Translations under genes and position numbers: made by a program
Origin: Pseudomonadota bacterium
GTDB lineage: Bacteria > Pseudomonadota > Gammaproteobacteria > Ga0077536
DNA: 64,000 nucleotides
Reading direction: 5' to 3'
Assembly (NCBI GenBank): GCA_036339995.1
Contig: JAYYZW010000014.1
Span: 6,153-70,152, forward strand
Part shown: in pieces, positions 7,705-51,268 of the stretch
Layout of the letters: the number at the start of each line of letters is the position of its first letter
Numbering within the stretch: position 1 is the stretch's first letter
Notes under the pieces: model-generated
The model's input: only the letters and a program-made list of their open reading frames with translations
The model's database searches: none
What the model was told of the DNA's origin: nothing

Positions 7705-8178
7705 CTATCCTGTTTCTAGCAAGCTTTGGAGCATCCGCGCGTTCTTTTCGTGGATCTGCATCCGCTGGGTCAAAAGATCCGCACTGGGCTCGTCTCCCGC
7801 CTGTTCGATGACGGGGAAGACGCTGCGCGCGGTACGCACAACGGCTTCCTGCCGGGACACGAGCCGACGGATCATTTCCGTCGCACCTGGCTCGTCGTCT
7901 TCCTCGGTGATCGAGGTCAGATCCGCAAAATCACGATAAAAACCGGGCGCCCGATGCCCAAGCGCGCGAATACGCTCGGCAATCTGATCGACCGCGAGGG
8001 CCAGCTCCGTGTAATGCGTTTCGAACAGTACGTGTAAGGCCGTGAACTGGGGGCCCGTCACGTTCCAATGGTAGTTGTGCGTCTTGAGATAAAAGGTGTA
8101 GCTGTCTGCGAGCAGCCGGGACAAGCCCGCAGCGATGGCCGCGCGTTTCTCGGCGGGTATTCCAATATCGATATCCAT
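7705..8178 (-). CDS. dps: Dps (DNA starvation/stationary-phase protection, ferritin-like)
   Basis: 157 aa. YTFYLKTHNYHWNVTGPQFTALHVLFETHY...DQIAERIRALG. Confidence 0.9.
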   Translation of the reverse strand: MDIDIGIPAEKRAAIAAGLSRLLADSYTFYLKTHNYHWNVTGPQFTALHVLFETHYTELALAVDQIAERIRALGHRAPGFYRDFADLTSITEEDDEPGATEMIRRLVSRQEAVVRTARSVFPVIEQAGDEPSADLLTQRMQIHEKNARMLQSLLETG

Positions 8179-11510: not shown

Positions 11511-12608
11511 TCATATGTCTTGCTCGCGCTCTTCGGCGACGAGGACAGATTGGCCTGGCCTCAGTATCTCGTTGCCGCGAACGACCACTTGTTGACCGGG
11601 ACTGACGTCACCGTGCACGATTTCGATGTGATCTCGATAGGAACGGCCGGTCTCGATTCGCTGCGGAACGGCCTTGGTGACACCGTCTTCGACGATGATG
11701 ACCCAGACCTTAGCAGTGCCATCGGGTTTCCGCACCACCGCATCGCGCGGTAGCAACAGTGCGGACGCCTGGCCGCGCGCGCCGATGTACAGACTGACGC
11801 GCGCCGACATCCCGGGCGCCAACCGGTTCTCATCATTGGGAATATCGATCCATATTCTGAACGTTCTCGAGGCAAGATCACTGATGGGAATTTTTCTCGC
11901 CACCTTCGCCTCGAATGTCCGACCGGGCATGGCGTCAAAGCGAATGGTCACGTCGGTGTCGATTTGGATACCCGCGTAATAGAACTGCGGCACGGACACC
12001 TCCAATCGCAACAACTTGATGTCTACGAGCTCGGCGAGAGCCGTGTTGGTTTCAACCCACTCCCCTTGCTCAACCAGCTTGCGGCTCACGACGGCATCGA
12101 AGGGCGCGTGAACAACGTGACGCCGCAGTAATTCCCGCGCCCTCTCAAATTGCGCTTTGGCCTGTTTAACCGTAGCGGCGTCGATATCTATCTGAGCCTT
12201 GGCGGCAGAGACCGTCGTGTCGGCGACATTGCGGGTCTCCTGCAACTCAAGCAGTTCACGATATCGCCGTTCGGACTCAAGCCTGCGTGCGCGGGCTTCT
12301 TCGAGCCGCGCATTTGCCGCATCGACGTCAATTCGCGCAAGCGCTTGATCTAACAGCAAGACGACTGCACCGCGCTCGATGCGATCACCGTCATCGACCC
12401 GTATCTCTGCAACAAGGCCGTCGATTTCAGTCGAAAGGCGTGAAGTCCTGTGTGCGATGAGGCTTCCGTTAAGCGTAACTTCCTCACGTATTTCGGCTGT
12501 CTGTACGGTCGAGACGCCGACCGGTACGGGTGCCTCAGCCATCAAACCCAGCGGCGCAAAACAAATACCGCCGCGCAGCAAGGCACCGACGATACGTGCC
12601 GGTATCAA
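11511..12608 (-). CDS. RND efflux periplasmic adaptor (HlyD/MFP family)
   Basis: 365 aa. Signal/anchor segment, a coiled-coil stretch (ARLEEARARRLESERRYRELLELQE...), beta-barrel C-terminus. Sits directly upstream of the RND permease. Confidence 0.9.
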   Translation of the reverse strand: MIPARIVGALLRGGICFAPLGLMAEAPVPVGVSTVQTAEIREEVTLNGSLIAHRTSRLSTEIDGLVAEIRVDDGDRIERGAVVLLLDQALARIDVDAANARLEEARARRLESERRYRELLELQETRNVADTTVSAAKAQIDIDAATVKQAKAQFERARELLRRHVVHAPFDAVVSRKLVEQGEWVETNTALAELVDIKLLRLEVSVPQFYYAGIQIDTDVTIRFDAMPGRTFEAKVARKIPISDLASRTFRIWIDIPNDENRLAPGMSARVSLYIGARGQASALLLPRDAVVRKPDGTAKVWVIIVEDGVTKAVPQRIETGRSYRDHIEIVHGDVSPGQQVVVRGNEILRPGQSVLVAEEREQDI

Positions 12609-13039
12609 GACTGGAATTCCATGTTCACCAGCACATTATCGGCGTTGGCAGGGACGCTTGTCACATACTCCTAACCGAGCGCGAACGACCTGAATTGCGG
12701 GAAACATGGAAATCGAGATCCGCGCTGCTATATTTAGATCATGGGGTGAGTTCAAGGCGCACCAAACCGGCGAGGACGCCTGCGACCACCCACTGATGAG
12801 TGACGCGTCACGAATCAAATGTGCAGTAGATGCCTATACAGGAGGACCTCGCTCAGCGAGGCCAAACCGCCGGCCGAAGCCCCGCCTTAGTGTGGGGTTT
12901 ACTTTTCGATCCCCCCGTGTATTTTTCCTGTCATTCTGATCGACCATTCAATTCCTTTTTTTCGCCCGCTTGCGGGCGATTCCTCACGCTAAAATGCCCA
13001 GAAGATCTTTCGAAGCAACCTGATGGCCGGCGCGGGAAA

Positions 13040-13801
13040 TTAGTTTCGACGGGTGCCGAGTATTACCGCCCGTTTGAGCATCCTTGCGAAAACCGTACTG
13101 CCCGCCTCGATTAAGGCGGAAACGTCGTCGCGGCCCAGCTCGTTCGCTACGATTTGGTAAATTTCGAACCCGGTCCTCCCCCCATTCTCGATGATGAGTT
13201 CAAGAAGACGCGCCGATGCGCTGCTCAAATCCAGGAAACCATAGAGGTTGTCCAAATCGCGAAACACAGCGATCCGCGTCGCCGCGGGAGGTGGTTCAAT
13301 TGACTGATACTCTGGACCAATGGTATGGACCGGAAATCGATAGGTCACGATCTTGAGGATGGGATTGGGTACCGGGATTCCCTTGATCAGGTCGCCGCTG
13401 CGATCGATCCCCGTCAGATCGACCTGCCGCTCGTCCGCGCCTATCAAGGTTTCAAGCCAATCGAAATGAGCGAGTTCGCCTAGGAAGGGCGGATCAGCCG
13501 GATCCTCACGCTCGCATTCGAGATACTCGAGAAACTCCAGCGGCAAATCGACGAAGGCCGACGCCCGTGACGCATGGAGAATAAGATAATCGCGCACCAG
13601 AGCGTTCCAGCGCTCGTCATCGAAGATCTCACGCACTCTCGGGAAGTTGTCCTTCATGAAACCTTCGACGTTCGCGAATATCGCGCGACGATAGATAGCC
13701 ATGCGGCGATCCTCGTGACCTAGCGGAGGAGCCTCCTGGTCGGGATCGCGCAGGTATCGGGTAAACAAGCGCTGCAGGCGAATGAACTCCGGTTCCATCA
13801 C
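13040..13801 (-). CDS. DUF2063-family protein (MNIO partner, BufC/HvfC-like)
   Basis: 253 aa. RLQRLFTRYLRDPD...MAIYRRAIFANVEGFMKDNFPRVREIF...LGELAHFDWLE matches the DUF2063 pattern. Downstream of the DUF692 gene in the same orientation. Confidence 0.8.
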   Translation of the reverse strand: MMEPEFIRLQRLFTRYLRDPDQEAPPLGHEDRRMAIYRRAIFANVEGFMKDNFPRVREIFDDERWNALVRDYLILHASRASAFVDLPLEFLEYLECEREDPADPPFLGELAHFDWLETLIGADERQVDLTGIDRSGDLIKGIPVPNPILKIVTYRFPVHTIGPEYQSIEPPPAATRIAVFRDLDNLYGFLDLSSASARLLELIIENGGRTGFEIYQIVANELGRDDVSALIEAGSTVFARMLKRAVILGTRRN

Positions 13802-13819
13802 GAAAGGTCTCTCAGGGAA

Positions 13820-13972
13820 CCTCTGAATAAGTCATGGTAGGTCCGATTTGTTCGTGCACCGTGCAGAACAAGGTACGAATCGCAGGCCATAGCGGGGACT
13901 ATTGGCAAGCTTCGTAACGCAAGGCTCCACGATTTCATGGGCAAGGCAGATGTGCCATGACTTATTCAGAGG
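13820..13972. repeat. MITE-like element: perfect 18-bp terminal inverted repeats around a 117-bp core
   Basis: cctctgaataagtcatgg at 13820..13837 and its exact reverse complement ccatgacttattcagagg at 13955..13972. The left-end 22-mer gaacctctgaataagtcatggt recurs at 16533..16554. Confidence 0.8.
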
Positions 13973-13976
13973 CCCT

Positions 13977-14885
13977 TTAGGCAGCGGCGTCCCCGACACT
14001 TTGAGCGTATCGCGATTGCAATGCTTTGATTCTGGCCACTTCAGGCATCATCTCGCCGAGCGGTGGGATATTCTCGTCTCGCTCCAACAATGTCGGAAAT
14101 ACGCCAAACTCCTGGTACGCGAAATCCAATAAGGACCACACGGGATCGATGATGGGCTCGCCATGTGTATCGACGATGAGGTCCTCATCCTCATTGGTAT
14201 GCCCGGCAATGTGCGCATAGGCGATGCGCTGCGCGGGAATCTTCGAGATGAAAGACTTCGCGTCATAGCGATGATTCACGCTGTTGACGTAAACGTTGTT
14301 CACGTCGAACAGAAGCTGGCAGTCGGCCTCCTCGAGTACGGCCTTGATGAAGGTAATTTCATCTAATTCCGTCGACAAGGTCAGATAATACGACGCGTTT
14401 TCCACCGCGATCGTCCGCTCCAGCACATCCTGGACCTGCCGAATTCTCGCGGCGAGGTGGCGCACGGCTTCTTCCGTGAATGGAATTGGAAGAAGCTCGT
14501 ATAGCTGACCACTCTCCGCGCAAAAAGTCAGGTGATCGCCGTAGATGAGAACCTTGTGACGGCCCAGGAATTTTTTTACGCGGGCGAGGTATTCGAGATC
14601 CAGGGGATCCGGACCGCCAAGATTGAGCAGTAATCCGTGGCAGGCGAGGGGCCGTTCACAGGTAATGCGCTCAAATGCCTCGCCGAGGCGGCCGCCTACA
14701 CCGATCCAATTCTCGGGAGCGACTTCAAGGAATTCGATTTCGTCTGGGATGTGGTCCTGCAGCGGACCCATGTGGGTCCGCCGCAGACCAAGACCGGCGC
14801 CTGCTACGGCGAAATTCCGTTGCACCGGTTGAGTTTGGACAATAATGTCCGGGTCGTTTATTTCTTGAGGTGCTTCATCGAGCAC
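13977..14885 (-). CDS. DUF692 / multinuclear non-heme iron oxidase (MNIO; MbnB/BufB/HvfB-like)
   Basis: 302 aa. AGAGLGLRR...IEFLEVAPENW...HGLLLNLGG...GDHLTF...LLPIPFTEEAV...AVENASYY...LLFDVNNVYVNSVNH...HIAGH...VDTHGEPIIDPVW...PTLLERD matches the DUF692 (UPF0276) TIM-barrel pattern. The start is either ATG 14885 (28-nt overlap with the upstream ORF) or GTG 14825. Confidence 0.9.
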   Translation of the reverse strand: MLDEAPQEINDPDIIVQTQPVQRNFAVAGAGLGLRRTHMGPLQDHIPDEIEFLEVAPENWIGVGGRLGEAFERITCERPLACHGLLLNLGGPDPLDLEYLARVKKFLGRHKVLIYGDHLTFCAESGQLYELLPIPFTEEAVRHLAARIRQVQDVLERTIAVENASYYLTLSTELDEITFIKAVLEEADCQLLFDVNNVYVNSVNHRYDAKSFISKIPAQRIAYAHIAGHTNEDEDLIVDTHGEPIIDPVWSLLDFAYQEFGVFPTLLERDENIPPLGEMMPEVARIKALQSRYAQSVGDAAA

Positions 14886-15169
14886 ATATCACCGGCGAAG
14901 GTCCCGCAAACACCGGGATCTTTCATGCCTGTCGCGAGCTTCCCGCCAGCGTATTTAGCCTTCTGGTCACCACCGTAAGTGAAACCGGTTTCGTCATTGA
15001 TCATGACTTCGTTGCCCTGCATATCCATGGCTTCGCCGGCAACGGTGACGCCTTCACCGAATTCCACCATCTGGAAAGGGTTGTCGGCCGCGTTAGCGGA
15101 CACCGCTAATGCCAGAATGACACTGGAACCAAGCGCAGCAGCAACAGGCTTCAGATTGTTTTTCTTCAT
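14858..15169 (-). CDS. Small secreted Met-rich protein; candidate RiPP precursor of the MNIO
   Basis: 103 aa. Sec-type signal MKKNNLKPVAAALGSSVILALAVSANA|ADNP. The 76-aa mature part has 7 Met and ends in CGTFAGDMCSMKHLKK. Strong SD GAGGAGGAAGG upstream of the ATG. Abuts or overlaps the DUF692 gene. Confidence 0.7.
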   Translation of the reverse strand: MKKNNLKPVAAALGSSVILALAVSANAADNPFQMVEFGEGVTVAGEAMDMQGNEVMINDETGFTYGGDQKAKYAGGKLATGMKDPGVCGTFAGDMCSMKHLKK

Positions 15170-15347
15170 GATTGACCTTCCTCCTCAGAGATTTTTAACG
15201 TTGTACAACACCCCCGGGGACCGGCCGCGACACGCCCACGCATCCATTCGAGCAGAGTCCGGCAGCTATCCGGCCGGGGCTAGGGATGTTAGCGACCGAG
15301 GTAATATAAGTCTAGGCAGGCGGGATCCCGACGGATGCGGTCGGTGA

Positions 15348-15384
15348 ACAAAAAAACCCCGCCGAGGCAAACCGCCGCGGGGTT
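15348..15384 (-). terminator. Intrinsic-terminator-like hairpin plus U-run, oriented for the minus strand
   Basis: aaccccgc (15355..15362) pairs with gcggggtt (15377..15384), with extra inner pairs. A run of 7 A on the plus strand (15350..15356) gives 7 U after the stem on the minus strand. Confidence 0.55.
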
Positions 15385-15493
15385 ACGCGAATTGGAGCGT
15401 AAACCTATCGCTACGCAGGCCAAGTTGGCGCCGGCAGGCTGAACCCCTTGGGAAATTTTCGTAAACATCTTAAGCACCGGGCGCGAAATTCGA

Positions 15494-16531
15494 ATGCAAT
15501 CTAACGCATTGATTACATTTATTTTATTGAGCTTTCCCGCGCTCGCTGGAGGTGCGGACACGGGCGTCGATGCCTTCCGCCGCGGGGACTTTGACGCGGC
15601 CCAGCGGTACTTCACGGCAAAGGCCGAGCGCGGCGACCGGATAGCGCAGAACAATCTGGGCGTCATGTATCTGAAAGGGCGTGGCGTCGAGGTCGATTTC
15701 GTCAAGGCTAGAGCCTATTTCAAAGCCGCCGCCAACCAAGCGCTGGGGGGCGCGATGTTCAATCTGGGCATCATGCATCTTCGGGGCTACGGCAGCAAAA
15801 TCAATCTCCGCGAGGCGGTCACCTGGTTTCGCAAAAGTGCTGTGCGGGGCGATCGCGAAGCGCAATTCTTCCTCGGGTTGATGTATTTCAAAGGCCAAGG
15901 GACCCTGCCCGACCCTGAGAAGGCGCGTCAGTGGTTTCAGAAATCCTCTGAGGCAGGCTTAGCGGCGGCACAGTTCAATCTCGCCATGATTATTCTAAAG
16001 GCAGGCGATGGCGCCGCCAACGAGGAAGAGGCGCTGCGATGGCTTGATGCGGCAGCCGAGCAGGGTCACGAACAAGCCAAGCTGCATATCGCCAAGGTGC
16101 ATCTCGCACACGTGGACGACCCTGATAGAGCGGCTCGCGCCGCAATCGTCTTGCACGAACTTGCCGACGTCGGCGAACCCGAAGCGCAGATGCAATACGG
16201 CTTGATGCATACCTTCGGGTACGGCGTACCGCTCGATCACGAAGAAGGCCGGTTCTGGTTGCGGCAATCGGCCCTTCAGGGACTGACGGCAGCCCAAATC
16301 AACCTCGGGGCGATCTATGCCGACGGTCTGGGCACGGATCCTGACCTCGTCAAAGCCTATGCCTGGCTGACCCTCGGCGCGGAAAACAATCGAGCGGCGA
16401 ACCAGGCTTTGGAGCAAGTCTCTCAACGGATCGAGCGGGCAGACCGTGAGCTAGCCGAAGCCATGATCACCGAACTGAGGCGCAAGACATCGAAGGACCC
16501 CATTCCGAAGGCCGGCGAAACCGCGCACTGA
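15494..16531 (+). CDS. Sel1-repeat (SLR/TPR-like) protein with signal peptide
   Basis: 345 aa. Repeated A(Q/E)xNLGxMYxxGxGVxxDxxKAxxWFxKAA units, e.g. AQNNLGVMYLKGRGVEVDFVKARAYFKAAA and AQFFLGLMYFKGQGTLPDPEKARQWFQKSS. Confidence 0.9.
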   Translation: MQSNALITFILLSFPALAGGADTGVDAFRRGDFDAAQRYFTAKAERGDRIAQNNLGVMYLKGRGVEVDFVKARAYFKAAANQALGGAMFNLGIMHLRGYGSKINLREAVTWFRKSAVRGDREAQFFLGLMYFKGQGTLPDPEKARQWFQKSSEAGLAAAQFNLAMIILKAGDGAANEEEALRWLDAAAEQGHEQAKLHIAKVHLAHVDDPDRAARAAIVLHELADVGEPEAQMQYGLMHTFGYGVPLDHEEGRFWLRQSALQGLTAAQINLGAIYADGLGTDPDLVKAYAWLTLGAENNRAANQALEQVSQRIERADRELAEAMITELRRKTSKDPIPKAGETAH

Positions 16532-16532
16532 T

Positions 16533-16554
16533 GAACCTCTGAATAAGTCATGGT
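16533..16554. repeat. Second copy of the MITE left-end 22-mer
   Basis: gaacctctgaataagtcatggt is identical to 13818..13839 and starts 2 nt after the Sel1 gene stop. A degenerate inverted match (ttcatgtgaggttcaga) lies near 16836..16852. Confidence 0.7.
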
Positions 16555-16680
16555 GCGAGTAGAATCGATGCGGGCCGGGAAAGAAACGAGGTCTGGTACA
16601 GATTGCTTCGTACTTCGTTCGATTGCCACTGGCGATCTTTCCTTTAAAAATGCAGGCCAGTGTGCCGCCCCGTGAAACAA

Positions 16681-16822
16681 TTTCGTAAGTCGCGCAGGAT
16701 TTTTCGTTCCTGGGAAGGCGCGAGGACGCCGCGTAGCGGCCTCTACGCAAGGACGAGCAACACCGCCAGGGACGAAAAAGACCAGCGAATTACGAAATTT
16801 TTCGCGTGACGGCGCACTAAGC
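16681..16822. repeat. Interspersed ~140-bp intergenic repeat, family A, copy 2
   Basis: tttcgtaagtcgcgcaggatttttcgttcctgggaaggcgcgaggacgccgcgtagcgg...gacgagcaac..cgccagg...aaaaag.ccagcgaatt aligns along its length with 19463..19601. Contains the nested hairpin tcgcgc-aggat-tttt-atcct-...-gcgcga. Confidence 0.75.
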
Positions 16823-16903
16823 ACCGGCGGCCGATTCATGTGAGGTTCAGATCGAAGCGCGAGAATGCACCGGTATTAATGCGCAATTAAATCGGTAGAC
16901 GAT

Positions 16904-17188
16904 ATGTTCACGATTAAATACCTAGCCCGAGTTTGTCGCCGGCCGGCCAGGGCTCTCGCATTGCTTGCCGCCTTGAATCTGTGGCAACCAGGCTTGATGT
17001 CCGCGGAAAATGGAACCACGCCTGCCACATCACCGACGGAGCAATCGCAAAGTACGAACGAATCGAAAGCCCAAGACACCAAGTGCTTTCATGGTTGCCT
17101 CAGGTGGGGCAAGTTTTGCAATGTCGATCCGCGCGGAGTCTACAAGTGCCGCCGGCGTTGCGAGAAATTCGGCGAAATTTGCGAGTGA
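16904..17188 (+). CDS. Small secreted Cys-rich protein with a tandem C-x3-C-x6-C motif
   Basis: 94 aa. Signal-like RRPARALALLAALNLWQPGLMSA, a Thr/Ser/Gln-rich linker, then CFHGCLRWGKFC-x9-CRRRCEKFGEIC. Its stop overlaps the GTG start of the next gene (GTGA). Confidence 0.5.
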   Translation: MFTIKYLARVCRRPARALALLAALNLWQPGLMSAENGTTPATSPTEQSQSTNESKAQDTKCFHGCLRWGKFCNVDPRGVYKCRRRCEKFGEICE

Positions 17189-19387: not shown

Positions 19388-19462
19388 CTCAAAGTATCGC
19401 GTGATTCATCGTGACGGTGCCGGCAGGCATTGCAAAATCTCGTAGCCCGTCTCGTCAATAGG

Positions 19463-19601
19463 TTTCATGAGTCGCGCAGGATTTTTATCCTGGCAAGGCG
19501 CGAGGACGCCCAGTAGCGGGCTTTACACACCGACGAGCAACGTCGCCAGGGGCAAAAAGGGCCAGCGAATTCTCGAACCTATTTACGGGACAGCACACTA
19601 G
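19463..19601. repeat. Interspersed ~140-bp intergenic repeat, family A, copy 3
   Basis: Aligns with 16681..16822 and, at its right end, with 1..58. Its last bases supply the stop codon (19598..19600) of the MBL-fold gene. Confidence 0.75.
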
Positions 19602-51148: not shown

Positions 51149-51268
51149 CACAATAACTTAAAACCACAGAGACCACAGAGACCACAGAGAAATACATTCT
51201 ATTTATGATCTGTAAACGGTCCTTTTTCTTTTTCTCTGTGTCCTCTGTGATCTCTGTGGTTTATTGTG
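51149..51268. repeat. Large imperfect palindrome whose arms are three tandem 9-mers (accacagag)
   Basis: The left arm cacaataacttaaaaccacagagaccacagagaccacagagaaa pairs with tttctctgtgtcctctgtgatctctgtggtttattgtg (51231..51268). The loop is ~38 nt and AT-rich. Confidence 0.85.

Follow-up and report, generated by a model that had tools for sequence, protein, structure and literature searches.

Gene clusters that pair an MNIO with a PME1 partner are found in about half of the reference genomes of Pseudomonadota, and the rules by which these enzymes choose their substrates are only starting to be mapped (PMC13097082). In the operon described here, the small precursor encoded beside such a pair carries no EGKCG repeats and only two cysteines. 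The operon lies on the minus strand of a 64,000-nucleotide stretch (the window) of contig JAYYZW010000014.1 (GCA_036339995.1) from a Pseudomonadota bacterium (Gammaproteobacteria; Ga0077536). An initial annotation had described three co-oriented open reading frames (ORFs), coding for a 103-amino acid signal-peptide protein, a DUF692 MNIO and a DUF2063 protein, and had suggested that they might represent an uncharacterized branch of MNIO-dependent RiPPs (peptides that are made on ribosomes and modified after translation) with a non-canonical composition. The three ORFs are indeed present at the coordinates given there, and it is nearly certain that together they are a RiPP operon of the HvfABC/fontiphorin ('captophorin') type whose precursor is divergent. 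The suggestion thus stands insofar as the operon is of the HvfABC/bufferin kind and has a new precursor core, but it was overstated: a new MNIO branch is not what we find, because the enzyme and its partner both pass the equivalog cutoffs for HvfB and HvfC.

The enzyme pair and its small precursor

The MNIO gene, read as its longest ORF of 302 codons, yields a DUF692 protein as annotated, matching PF05114 (MbnB_TglH_ChrH, formerly DUF692) over positions 1-262 of 263 with an E value of 3.8e-97 and 325.1 bits (cutoff 25). It passes the HvfB equivalog model NF003818 (397.5 bits; cutoff 360) and fails the BufB model NF050167 (263.3 bits; cutoff 310). Likewise, the 253-amino acid partner contains the expected DUF2063 domain (PF09836, 79 bits) together with the NGO1945 C-terminal domain (PF22106, 59.2 bits), and it passes the HvfC equivalog model NF050145 (210.3 bits; cutoff 142). 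Because the pair belongs to the HvfB and HvfC families, the operon should act like the characterized members of this group. The MNIO carries the motifs HGL (63), DHL (97), VEN (141), DVNN (174), HIAGH (205), DTHG (219) and ERD (248-250), all of which except HGL fall in identical columns when the protein is aligned with 3BWW, an MNIO from H. somni, and/or with MbnB. We take its iron-binding residues to be the equivalents of those in MbnB-type structures.

The small ORF is far above chance and is a real conserved gene. A word-index search found 192 homologues of about 103 amino acids, and the best 120 of these share 72-95% identity, are nearly all 102-104 amino acids long and come from uncultured Gammaproteobacteria or Pseudomonadota. 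An alignment of 115 sequences has 27 invariant positions, including C88, G89, C96, S97 and H100, and comparison with relatives gives proportions of synonymous differences of 0.6-0.9 (saturated) against nonsynonymous proportions of 0.07-0.16, for a dN/dS of approximately 0.04-0.1. As had been noted, the protein is not of the DUF2282 type: it matches no Pfam or NCBIfam family at E≤1, and this includes the HvfA models NF050188 and NF050137 (KCGExKCG), whose KCG motif it lacks. Three positive controls (precursors P0172, P0193 and P0127) all pass NF050137. The only two cysteines stand in the contexts V-C-G and (S/T/M)-C-S, so that by sequence the precursor falls outside the three published groups (DUF2282, Lys-Cys repeats and Cys-Lys); the type of system is itself known. 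An AlphaFold2 model built on the 115-sequence alignment is essentially disordered (pLDDT 48, pTM 0.17), with a sole helix at residues 8-22, and this predicted lack of a stable fold fits a flexible peptide substrate.

When a profile of the precursor was compared with 1.84 billion representative proteins, only 82 matches were obtained, and these divide the protein into two parts. The signal peptide, with a KK n-region, a hydrophobic core and an A-x-A site, can be aligned with its counterparts in precursors of the EGKCG type, and residues 1-47 as a whole align with such precursors at 49% identity (hhalign 98.8%, E 7.4e-17). In the library-wide profile search, this N-terminal part matches P0172, P0180, P0192 and P0193 (E 8e-6 to 6e-4), all of which have EGKCG repeats; the two of these four that were scanned (P0172 and P0193) pass the NCBI HvfA KCGExKCG model. 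By these comparisons, canonical precursors of the HvfA type share homology with residues 1-47, which comprise the Sec signal and what we call the NPF box. The second part is a C-terminal module of about 55 amino acids with the consensus DMQGN.V...F.YGGD...Y..GK..TG.KDP.VCG(T/S)F....CS(M/V/I).(H/Y). Judged by sequence, the truly non-canonical feature of the operon is this core, in which EGKCG repeats are absent and the two cysteines belong to a conserved module that is also found alone. Long fn3, EPTP and DUF6242 repeat proteins were rejected as homologues of the precursor, since their matches are limited to profile positions of approximately 21-59 and occur in many stretches per protein; in our reading they reflect a beta-propeller-blade-like 'D.QGN.V.I.D' motif rather than shared ancestry.

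Linkage of the two-cysteine module to HvfB and HvfC

Our working proposal, which we favor by a modest measure, is that HvfB and HvfC would turn Cys88 and Cys96 into 5-thiooxazoles, so that the periplasmic peptide would have a single copper site. First, in the 103-amino acid product a Sec signal peptide would be followed by an NPF leader box of the HvfA type and then by a tail rich in glycine, for which disorder is predicted. Second, the cytoplasmic iron enzyme HvfB, in complex with HvfC, would oxidize Cys88 (VCGTF) and Cys96 (xCSM) by four electrons each, producing two 5-thiooxazoles with a loss of 4 Da per cysteine. Third, the modified peptide would be exported by Sec, after which the signal peptide would be removed. 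Fourth, the 76-residue periplasmic product would bind one copper ion through its two heterocycles, probably with the participation of His100, as against up to four copper ions in canonical relatives with EGKCG repeats.

Among the characterized systems, FonB and FonC associate in a stable heterodimer, with which three Fe copurify, HvfB and HvfC form a weak complex, and the four-electron oxidation of cysteine, with its loss of 4 Da, gives a product now assigned as a 5-thiooxazole (PMC11252979; PMC13097082). FonBC requires a small residue after the target cysteine and also processes a related NVCGG motif (PMC13097082); both cysteines of the precursor examined here precede a small residue (Cys88-Gly and Cys96-Ser). 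In methanobactin, two modified cysteines create one four-coordinate Cu(I) site of the two-heterocycle N2S2 type (PMC11252979). By analogy, modification of Cys88 and Cys96 is probable, the two heterocycles would form one copper site with His100 as a possible extra ligand, and a role in copper handling is a tentative assignment that could fall either way.

We surveyed one genome per GTDB species for the motif KDP[AGS]VCG[TS]F and obtained 79 loci, all in metagenome-assembled genomes. Nearly all are labelled Gammaproteobacteria or Pseudomonadota, a few carry other names and are apparently mis-assigned, and the environments on record include lake, groundwater and marine samples. The module occurs in four settings. 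In the window type, a signal peptide and NPF box are joined to the module and its two cysteines. In chimeras, one to seven KCG motifs (four to seven in four of the five) are placed between the NPF box and the module. In a third setting, a signal peptide or lipoprotein signal precedes the module alone and no MNIO lies within 5 kb, and a fourth consists of divergent NPF-bearing copies that have no adjacent MNIO. The small ORF is retained in orthologous loci, which the initial annotation had made a test of its proposal, as it had the DUF692 and DUF2063 scores given above: the order precursor, MNIO, HvfC is seen in 45 of the 46 window-type loci, with the MNIO gene 20-80 nucleotides past the precursor. 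At the 46th locus (L045), a fragment of an MNIO gene begins 113 nucleotides downstream, 983 nucleotides before the locus ends, and the contig stops inside it. Across these loci, identities are 57-92% for the MNIO and 36-87% for HvfC, and the GLGLRR and ERD motifs are kept. Chimeric precursors are encoded at L064, L069, L072, L075 and L079, and also by P0127. MNIO-HvfC adjoins the chimera in all five loci where this can be tested, and the partial gene after P0127 scores as HvfB; the two-cysteine module is therefore physically tied to bona fide substrates.

A residue of the enzyme that touches the substrate differs between these two arrangements. In FonB, Arg15 acts as a gatekeeper and Arg16 engages the Glu of EGKCG; Asp249 serves as the catalytic base, and Phe250 contacts the Lys and Gly that flank the target cysteine. 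At this last position, Lys-Cys enzymes have Phe and Cys-Lys enzymes have Asp (PMC13097082). The window MNIO keeps Arg15 and Arg16 at the same positions (numbered from the start at 14825), and it reads LLERD250-E251-NIPP where H. somni 3BWW reads LLERDFNFPP, making Glu251 the equivalent of FonB-Phe250, which is also Phe in 3BWW. The residue is Phe in five of five MNIOs beside EGKCG chimeras, whereas among the 45 MNIOs beside repeat-less precursors it is Glu in 38, Leu in four, Val in two, Ile in one and Phe in none. Such a pattern would be expected if the repeat-less peptides are real substrates whose cysteines have different flanks. A possible charge compensation between this site (Glu, Leu, Val or Ile) and a Glu two residues before Cys96, sought by eye, was dropped in view of counter-examples at L016, L022 and L030.

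An unlikely alternative is that the small protein is an autonomous periplasmic module whose cysteines stay unmodified, either joined as a C-x7-C disulfide or acting directly in a metal or redox site of the Cys2-His/Met kind. Its place ahead of MNIO-HvfC would then be left over from an ancestor of the EGKCG type, and the enzymes would now be idle or serve a precursor encoded elsewhere. The occurrence of the module alone, behind a signal peptide or as a lipoprotein, at many loci that lack an MNIO is what this alternative would predict, as are the strong constraint over the whole mature sequence and the presence of several paralogues per genome, only one of them linked to an MNIO. The MNIO-linked copy L079 accompanies the orphans L074 and L085 in CBDDAG, L072 accompanies L076, L078 and L082 in JALSSM, and L023 accompanies L055 in the Baikal genome G149; it is possible that such orphan modules are modified in trans. 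The MNIO and HvfC genes are, however, intact and adjacent in 45 of 46 loci at the identities given above, and an idle pair would be expected to decay. Moreover, the substrate-contact residue shows a change and not random drift, the window contains no second precursor ORF of the EGKCG or NPF type that could serve as the alternative substrate, and the HvfA-type leader box is kept wherever the window-type arrangement occurs.

Three loci (L058, L061 and L063) bear on both the unmodified-module alternative and our proposal. Their neighborhoods resemble that of the window, with genes for a response regulator, a metallo-beta-lactamase-fold protein and TrmB in all three and those for the HAD nucleotidase, a 94-amino acid Cys protein and the Sel1 protein in part of them, and MNIO and HvfC are missing. 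In these orthologous positions after enzyme loss the cysteine motif is unchanged, as an autonomous module would have it, and the small proteins lack exactly the NPF box. This joint loss supports the idea that the box serves the enzyme complex.

Several observations weigh against the modification of Cys88 and Cys96 into a copper site. First, the module with both cysteines is present at no fewer than 25 loci that have no MNIO within 5 kb, among them L058, L061, L063, the lipoprotein versions, P0128 and P0132, and cysteine conservation alone is therefore not evidence of modification. Second, the correspondence between NPF box and enzyme is imperfect in both directions: L059 and L089 lack the box yet have an adjacent MNIO, and L065, L067, L068, L078 and L087 are divergent copies that bear the box with no adjacent MNIO. 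The former pair agrees with the finding that HvfA is still modified when its N-region is removed (PMC11252979). Third, the change from Phe to Glu may be a single inherited event in one clade, or a few independent events. Fourth, constraint spans the entire mature precursor, a pattern that resembles a small protein more than a leader and core peptide. Finally, no copper-specific neighbor gene was found around the operon.

We found no common partner for the orphan modules, and synteny is clade-specific only, involving the nqr operon, CFA-synthase-like genes, carbonic anhydrase/NhaA or a GSDH-like gene. At L074, L076, L077, L084 and L086, a lipoprotein-type module (lipobox ...ASCA) lies directly past the nqr (Na+-NQR) operon and a CBS-domain gene; these copies are followed by a gene for a conserved protein of approximately 270 amino acids, and no MNIO is nearby.

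Chemical outcome and relation to known systems

If the peptide is a substrate of HvfB and HvfC, the outcome need not be two 5-thiooxazoles, nor the role copper buffering. Cys88, in its Cys-Gly context, might alone be converted, or the enzyme with Glu251 might install another modification. FonBC has a strong preference for a target cysteine followed by Gly or Ala and modifies the NVCGG variant only once (PMC13097082), while Cys96 precedes Ser and has no preceding Lys; the specificity residue is unlike that of both characterized groups (Phe in Lys-Cys and Asp in Cys-Lys enzymes), and the MNIO superfamily performs several chemistries (PMC12452194). We nevertheless judge a different outcome to be improbable, given that the characterized MNIOs with a DUF2063/PME1 partner and signal-peptide precursors all install the same Cys-derived heterocycle (PMC13097082), and that both cysteines, Ser97 and His100 are invariant, which fits a site built from two heterocycles.

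Among the closest known systems, HvfABC/oxazolin of nontypeable Haemophilus influenzae (PMC11252979; 5-thiooxazole revision in PMC13097082) shares with the window the succession of precursor, MNIO and DUF2063 genes, enzymes above the HvfB and HvfC cutoffs, and a precursor with a Sec signal followed by a short conserved N-region. Unlike HvfA, the window precursor has no AEGKCGEGKCG repeats, has two cysteines rather than eight and fails both NCBIfam HvfA models; the window also lacks a DoxX gene (HvfX), and its MNIO has Glu instead of Phe beside the catalytic Asp. Fontiphorin (FonABC) of Fontimonas thermophila, which with gonophorin belongs to the captophorin class (PMC13097082), is likewise a minimal three-gene cluster without DoxX or regulators, its MNIO has Arg15 and Arg16 under the same numbering, and each target cysteine is followed by a small residue. 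FonA differs in having seven Lys-Cys sites in EGKCG repeats and binding up to four Cu, whereas the window precursor has two sites that are neither Lys-Cys nor Cys-Lys and faces an enzyme with Glu251 in place of FonB-Phe250.

Bulbicupramide (MmrABC) of marine Microbulbifer (PMC12538549) is similarly a marine gammaproteobacterial MNIO-DUF2063 cluster that is conserved in its lineage, has no protease and encodes a conserved N-terminal leader, modelled as binding the RiPP recognition element of the partner; its MmrA core consists of EGKCG cassettes with five to eight cysteines, in contrast to the 55-amino acid two-cysteine module. Bufferins (BufABC; DUF2282, BUF_6/12Cys; PMC11626156, PMC12452194) are also periplasmic signal-peptide Cys peptides that are modified by an MNIO with a PME-type-1 partner and have few modified cysteines, but the window MNIO is below the BufB cutoff, its precursor has no DUF2282 domain, and DoxX, sigma and anti-sigma genes are absent. 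An exact fit for the window precursor is the ungrouped set of 'hundreds of small annotated ORFs' that precede MNIO genes and code for proteins with 1-18 cysteines and a signal peptide (PMC12452194); it is encoded directly ahead of an MNIO of the large bufferin/oxazolin cluster. The strings VCGTF, NPFQM, CSMPH and DETGF are absent from the available part of the supplementary text of PMC12452194 and PMC13097082, which is weak evidence of novelty.

The value of this precursor family thus lies in a minimal natural substrate, with two target cysteines and one predicted metal site, in its modular tail and in the linked change at a residue known to influence substrate tolerance, and not in a new mechanism or kind of system. 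EGKCG chimeras, repeat-less and leader-less precursors, and orphan modules at loci that lost the enzymes make up a natural comparison series that is convenient for testing how MNIOs choose cysteines, and the family is suited to asking whether a single thiooxazole pair suffices for copper binding. A bolder reading, which we regard as doubtful, is that the 55-amino acid 'KDPAVCG' tail is an undescribed autonomous periplasmic module and that in one gammaproteobacterial lineage it became the only substrate of an HvfB re-tuned from Phe to Glu at the substrate-contact site. If so, the same small domain would exist in modified and unmodified forms, the enzyme would have a target that is neither Lys-Cys nor Cys-Lys, and a single-site metallophore or a different heterocycle pattern would be possible.

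Operon layout, insertion and surrounding sequences

The coordinates of the operon and its elements are collected in Table 1. The strong ribosome-binding site noted ahead of the small ORF is present, and its Shine-Dalgarno core, GGAG(G/A)AA, is found in 12 of 12 aligned relatives. In the promoter region, a block CCTAGACTTATATTA...CGCTAMCAT is kept upstream in relatives; the promoter-like site was missed by a stricter consensus scan. The overlap between the MNIO and precursor genes that had been considered is an artefact (28 nucleotides) of taking the longest ORF, and MNIO genes of relatives start after the precursor stop. We set the MNIO start at the GTG at 14825 because the MNIOs of relatives are 281-285 amino acids long and begin approximately 30 nucleotides after that stop. 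This GTG (MQRNFAVAGAGLGLRR...) matches the GTG (MHEFAVNGAGLGLRR) of L001 and is most likely the true start, giving 282 amino acids.

Table 1. Positions of the operon and its elements in the window.
Feature	Positions	Strand	Basis or remark
Candidate promoter-like site: TAGACT (15309-15314), 17-nucleotide spacer, TAACAT (15286-15291)	15286..15314	-	putative function, from sequence
Ribosome-binding site GAGGAGGAAGG	15176..15186	-	6 nucleotides upstream of ATG at 15169
Precursor gene, 103 amino acids; HvfA-like N-terminus and new two-Cys core	14858..15169	-	homologues, constraint, synteny
Sec signal peptide, residues 1-27, MKKNNLKPVAAALGSSVILALAVSANA	15089..15169	-	sequence inspection; predicted cleavage after ANA
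'NPF box', residues 28-47, ADNPFQMVEFGEGVTVAGEA, leader-like	15029..15088	-	common to canonical HvfA-type precursors
C-terminal two-Cys module, residues 48-103	14861..15028	-	found alone as well, and in chimeras behind EGKCG repeats
Cys88 codon (V-C-G-T-F), proposed modification site 1	14906..14908	-	invariant in 115/115 close homologues; putative modification
Cys96 codon (x-C-S-M/V), proposed modification site 2	14882..14884	-	invariant; putative modification
His100 codon, proposed extra ligand	14870..14872	-	invariant
HvfB-family MNIO, 282 amino acids from GTG 14825	13977..14825	-	NF003818; longest ORF up to 14885 (302 amino acids)
MITE/REP-like palindromic insertion, 165 nucleotides	13817..13981	.	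between MNIO and HvfC
HvfC-family partner, 253 amino acids from GTG 13801 (or ATG 13798)	13040..13801	-	DUF2063 N-domain and NGO1945-type C-domain

The gap between the MNIO and HvfC genes measures 175 base pairs and holds the repeat that had been counted among the peculiarities of the locus. The repeat is a real insertion, but it is specific to the strain and not a feature of this locus type: it is missing from L001 and from the 98%-identical relative L010, where 10 nucleotides separate the MNIO stop from the HvfC start or the two overlap. It has imperfect inverted ends of approximately 31 nucleotides (CCTCTGAATAAGTCATGG...) and a 3-nucleotide flanking direct repeat (CCT on the minus strand), and its fold is a long hairpin (-70.9 kcal/mol, z -6.0). 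Unrelated contigs from marine metagenomes carry the same element, L094 as a full copy and L100 as a 60-nucleotide mini-palindrome. By its sequence, the insertion is a mobile element specific to the window strain and resembles miniature inverted-repeat transposable elements (MITEs) or repetitive extragenic palindromes (REPs). Through the insertion the MNIO gene gains a new TAA stop, by which the C-terminus of the enzyme is preserved. As judged from the arrangement in relatives, the insertion breaks the usual translational coupling of MNIO and HvfC while leaving both ORFs intact. A solo end of this element, common to L010, is at 16533-16554, just past the Sel1 stop.

The flanks are as first described, with a divergent Sel1-repeat gene upstream and, downstream, about 430 base pairs of non-coding DNA before genes for an RND adaptor and pump. 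DoxX, sigma and anti-sigma genes are absent from the flanks, as had been stated, but this is not unusual: a three-gene fontiphorin cluster has been published (PMC13097082), the core genes occur 'in various combinations' (PMC12452194), and accessory genes are optional in published clusters. The RND genes have a promoter-like site of their own at 12664-12635. The pump is below all subfamily cutoffs, with its best scores against multidrug-type models, and we rejected a copper-specific neighborhood, since neither pump nor adaptor reaches the CusA/CzcA and CusB cutoffs and both are of a generic kind. Upstream lie the Sel1-repeat gene and genes for a 94-amino acid six-Cys signal-peptide protein and a HAD nucleotidase. 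A weak MerG match of the Sel1 protein reflects shared Sel1 repeats only, and Dps, the HAD nucleotidase and TrmB appear housekeeping-like. The 94-amino acid ORF (16904-17188, plus strand) has a signal-peptide-like N-terminus and two C-x3-C-x6-C units (KCFHGCLRWGKFC ... KCRRRCEKFGEIC) and matches no Pfam or NCBIfam family; it is kept between the Sel1 and HAD genes in most related loci, including L058 and L063, which lack MNIO and HvfC.

An Rfam scan of positions 12400-17000 returned nothing at E≤1. Between the Sel1 start and the precursor promoter, at 15347-15417 on the minus strand, there is a conserved unit of approximately 70 nucleotides that is found in at least 15 related loci. It consists of a 7-base-pair hairpin (consensus CGTAGCG-ATAG-CGTTACG, imperfect in the window), a linker, a GC-rich hairpin and a T-run, and ahead of it stands a CGCTAACAT box similar to the -10 region of the operon itself. 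The unit shows little covariation, since the sequence is itself conserved, and has no Rfam match; a small RNA or a leader/attenuator is a possible identity.

Farther from the operon, just beyond the RND pump, are genes for a cytochrome P450 (6402-7637, plus strand) and a Dps-like ferritin (7705-8178, minus strand), for which we saw no link to the operon. A second intergenic repeat family of approximately 125 nucleotides is represented at 16665-16791 and 19447-19571 (78-83% identical), and a partial copy at 15-58 matches 19558-19601. Finally, an inverted repeat at 51161-51262 has 32-nucleotide arms made of tandem CCACAGAGA units (AAACCACAGAGACCACAGAGACCACAGAGAAA) that are 91% complementary and lie 38 nucleotides apart.

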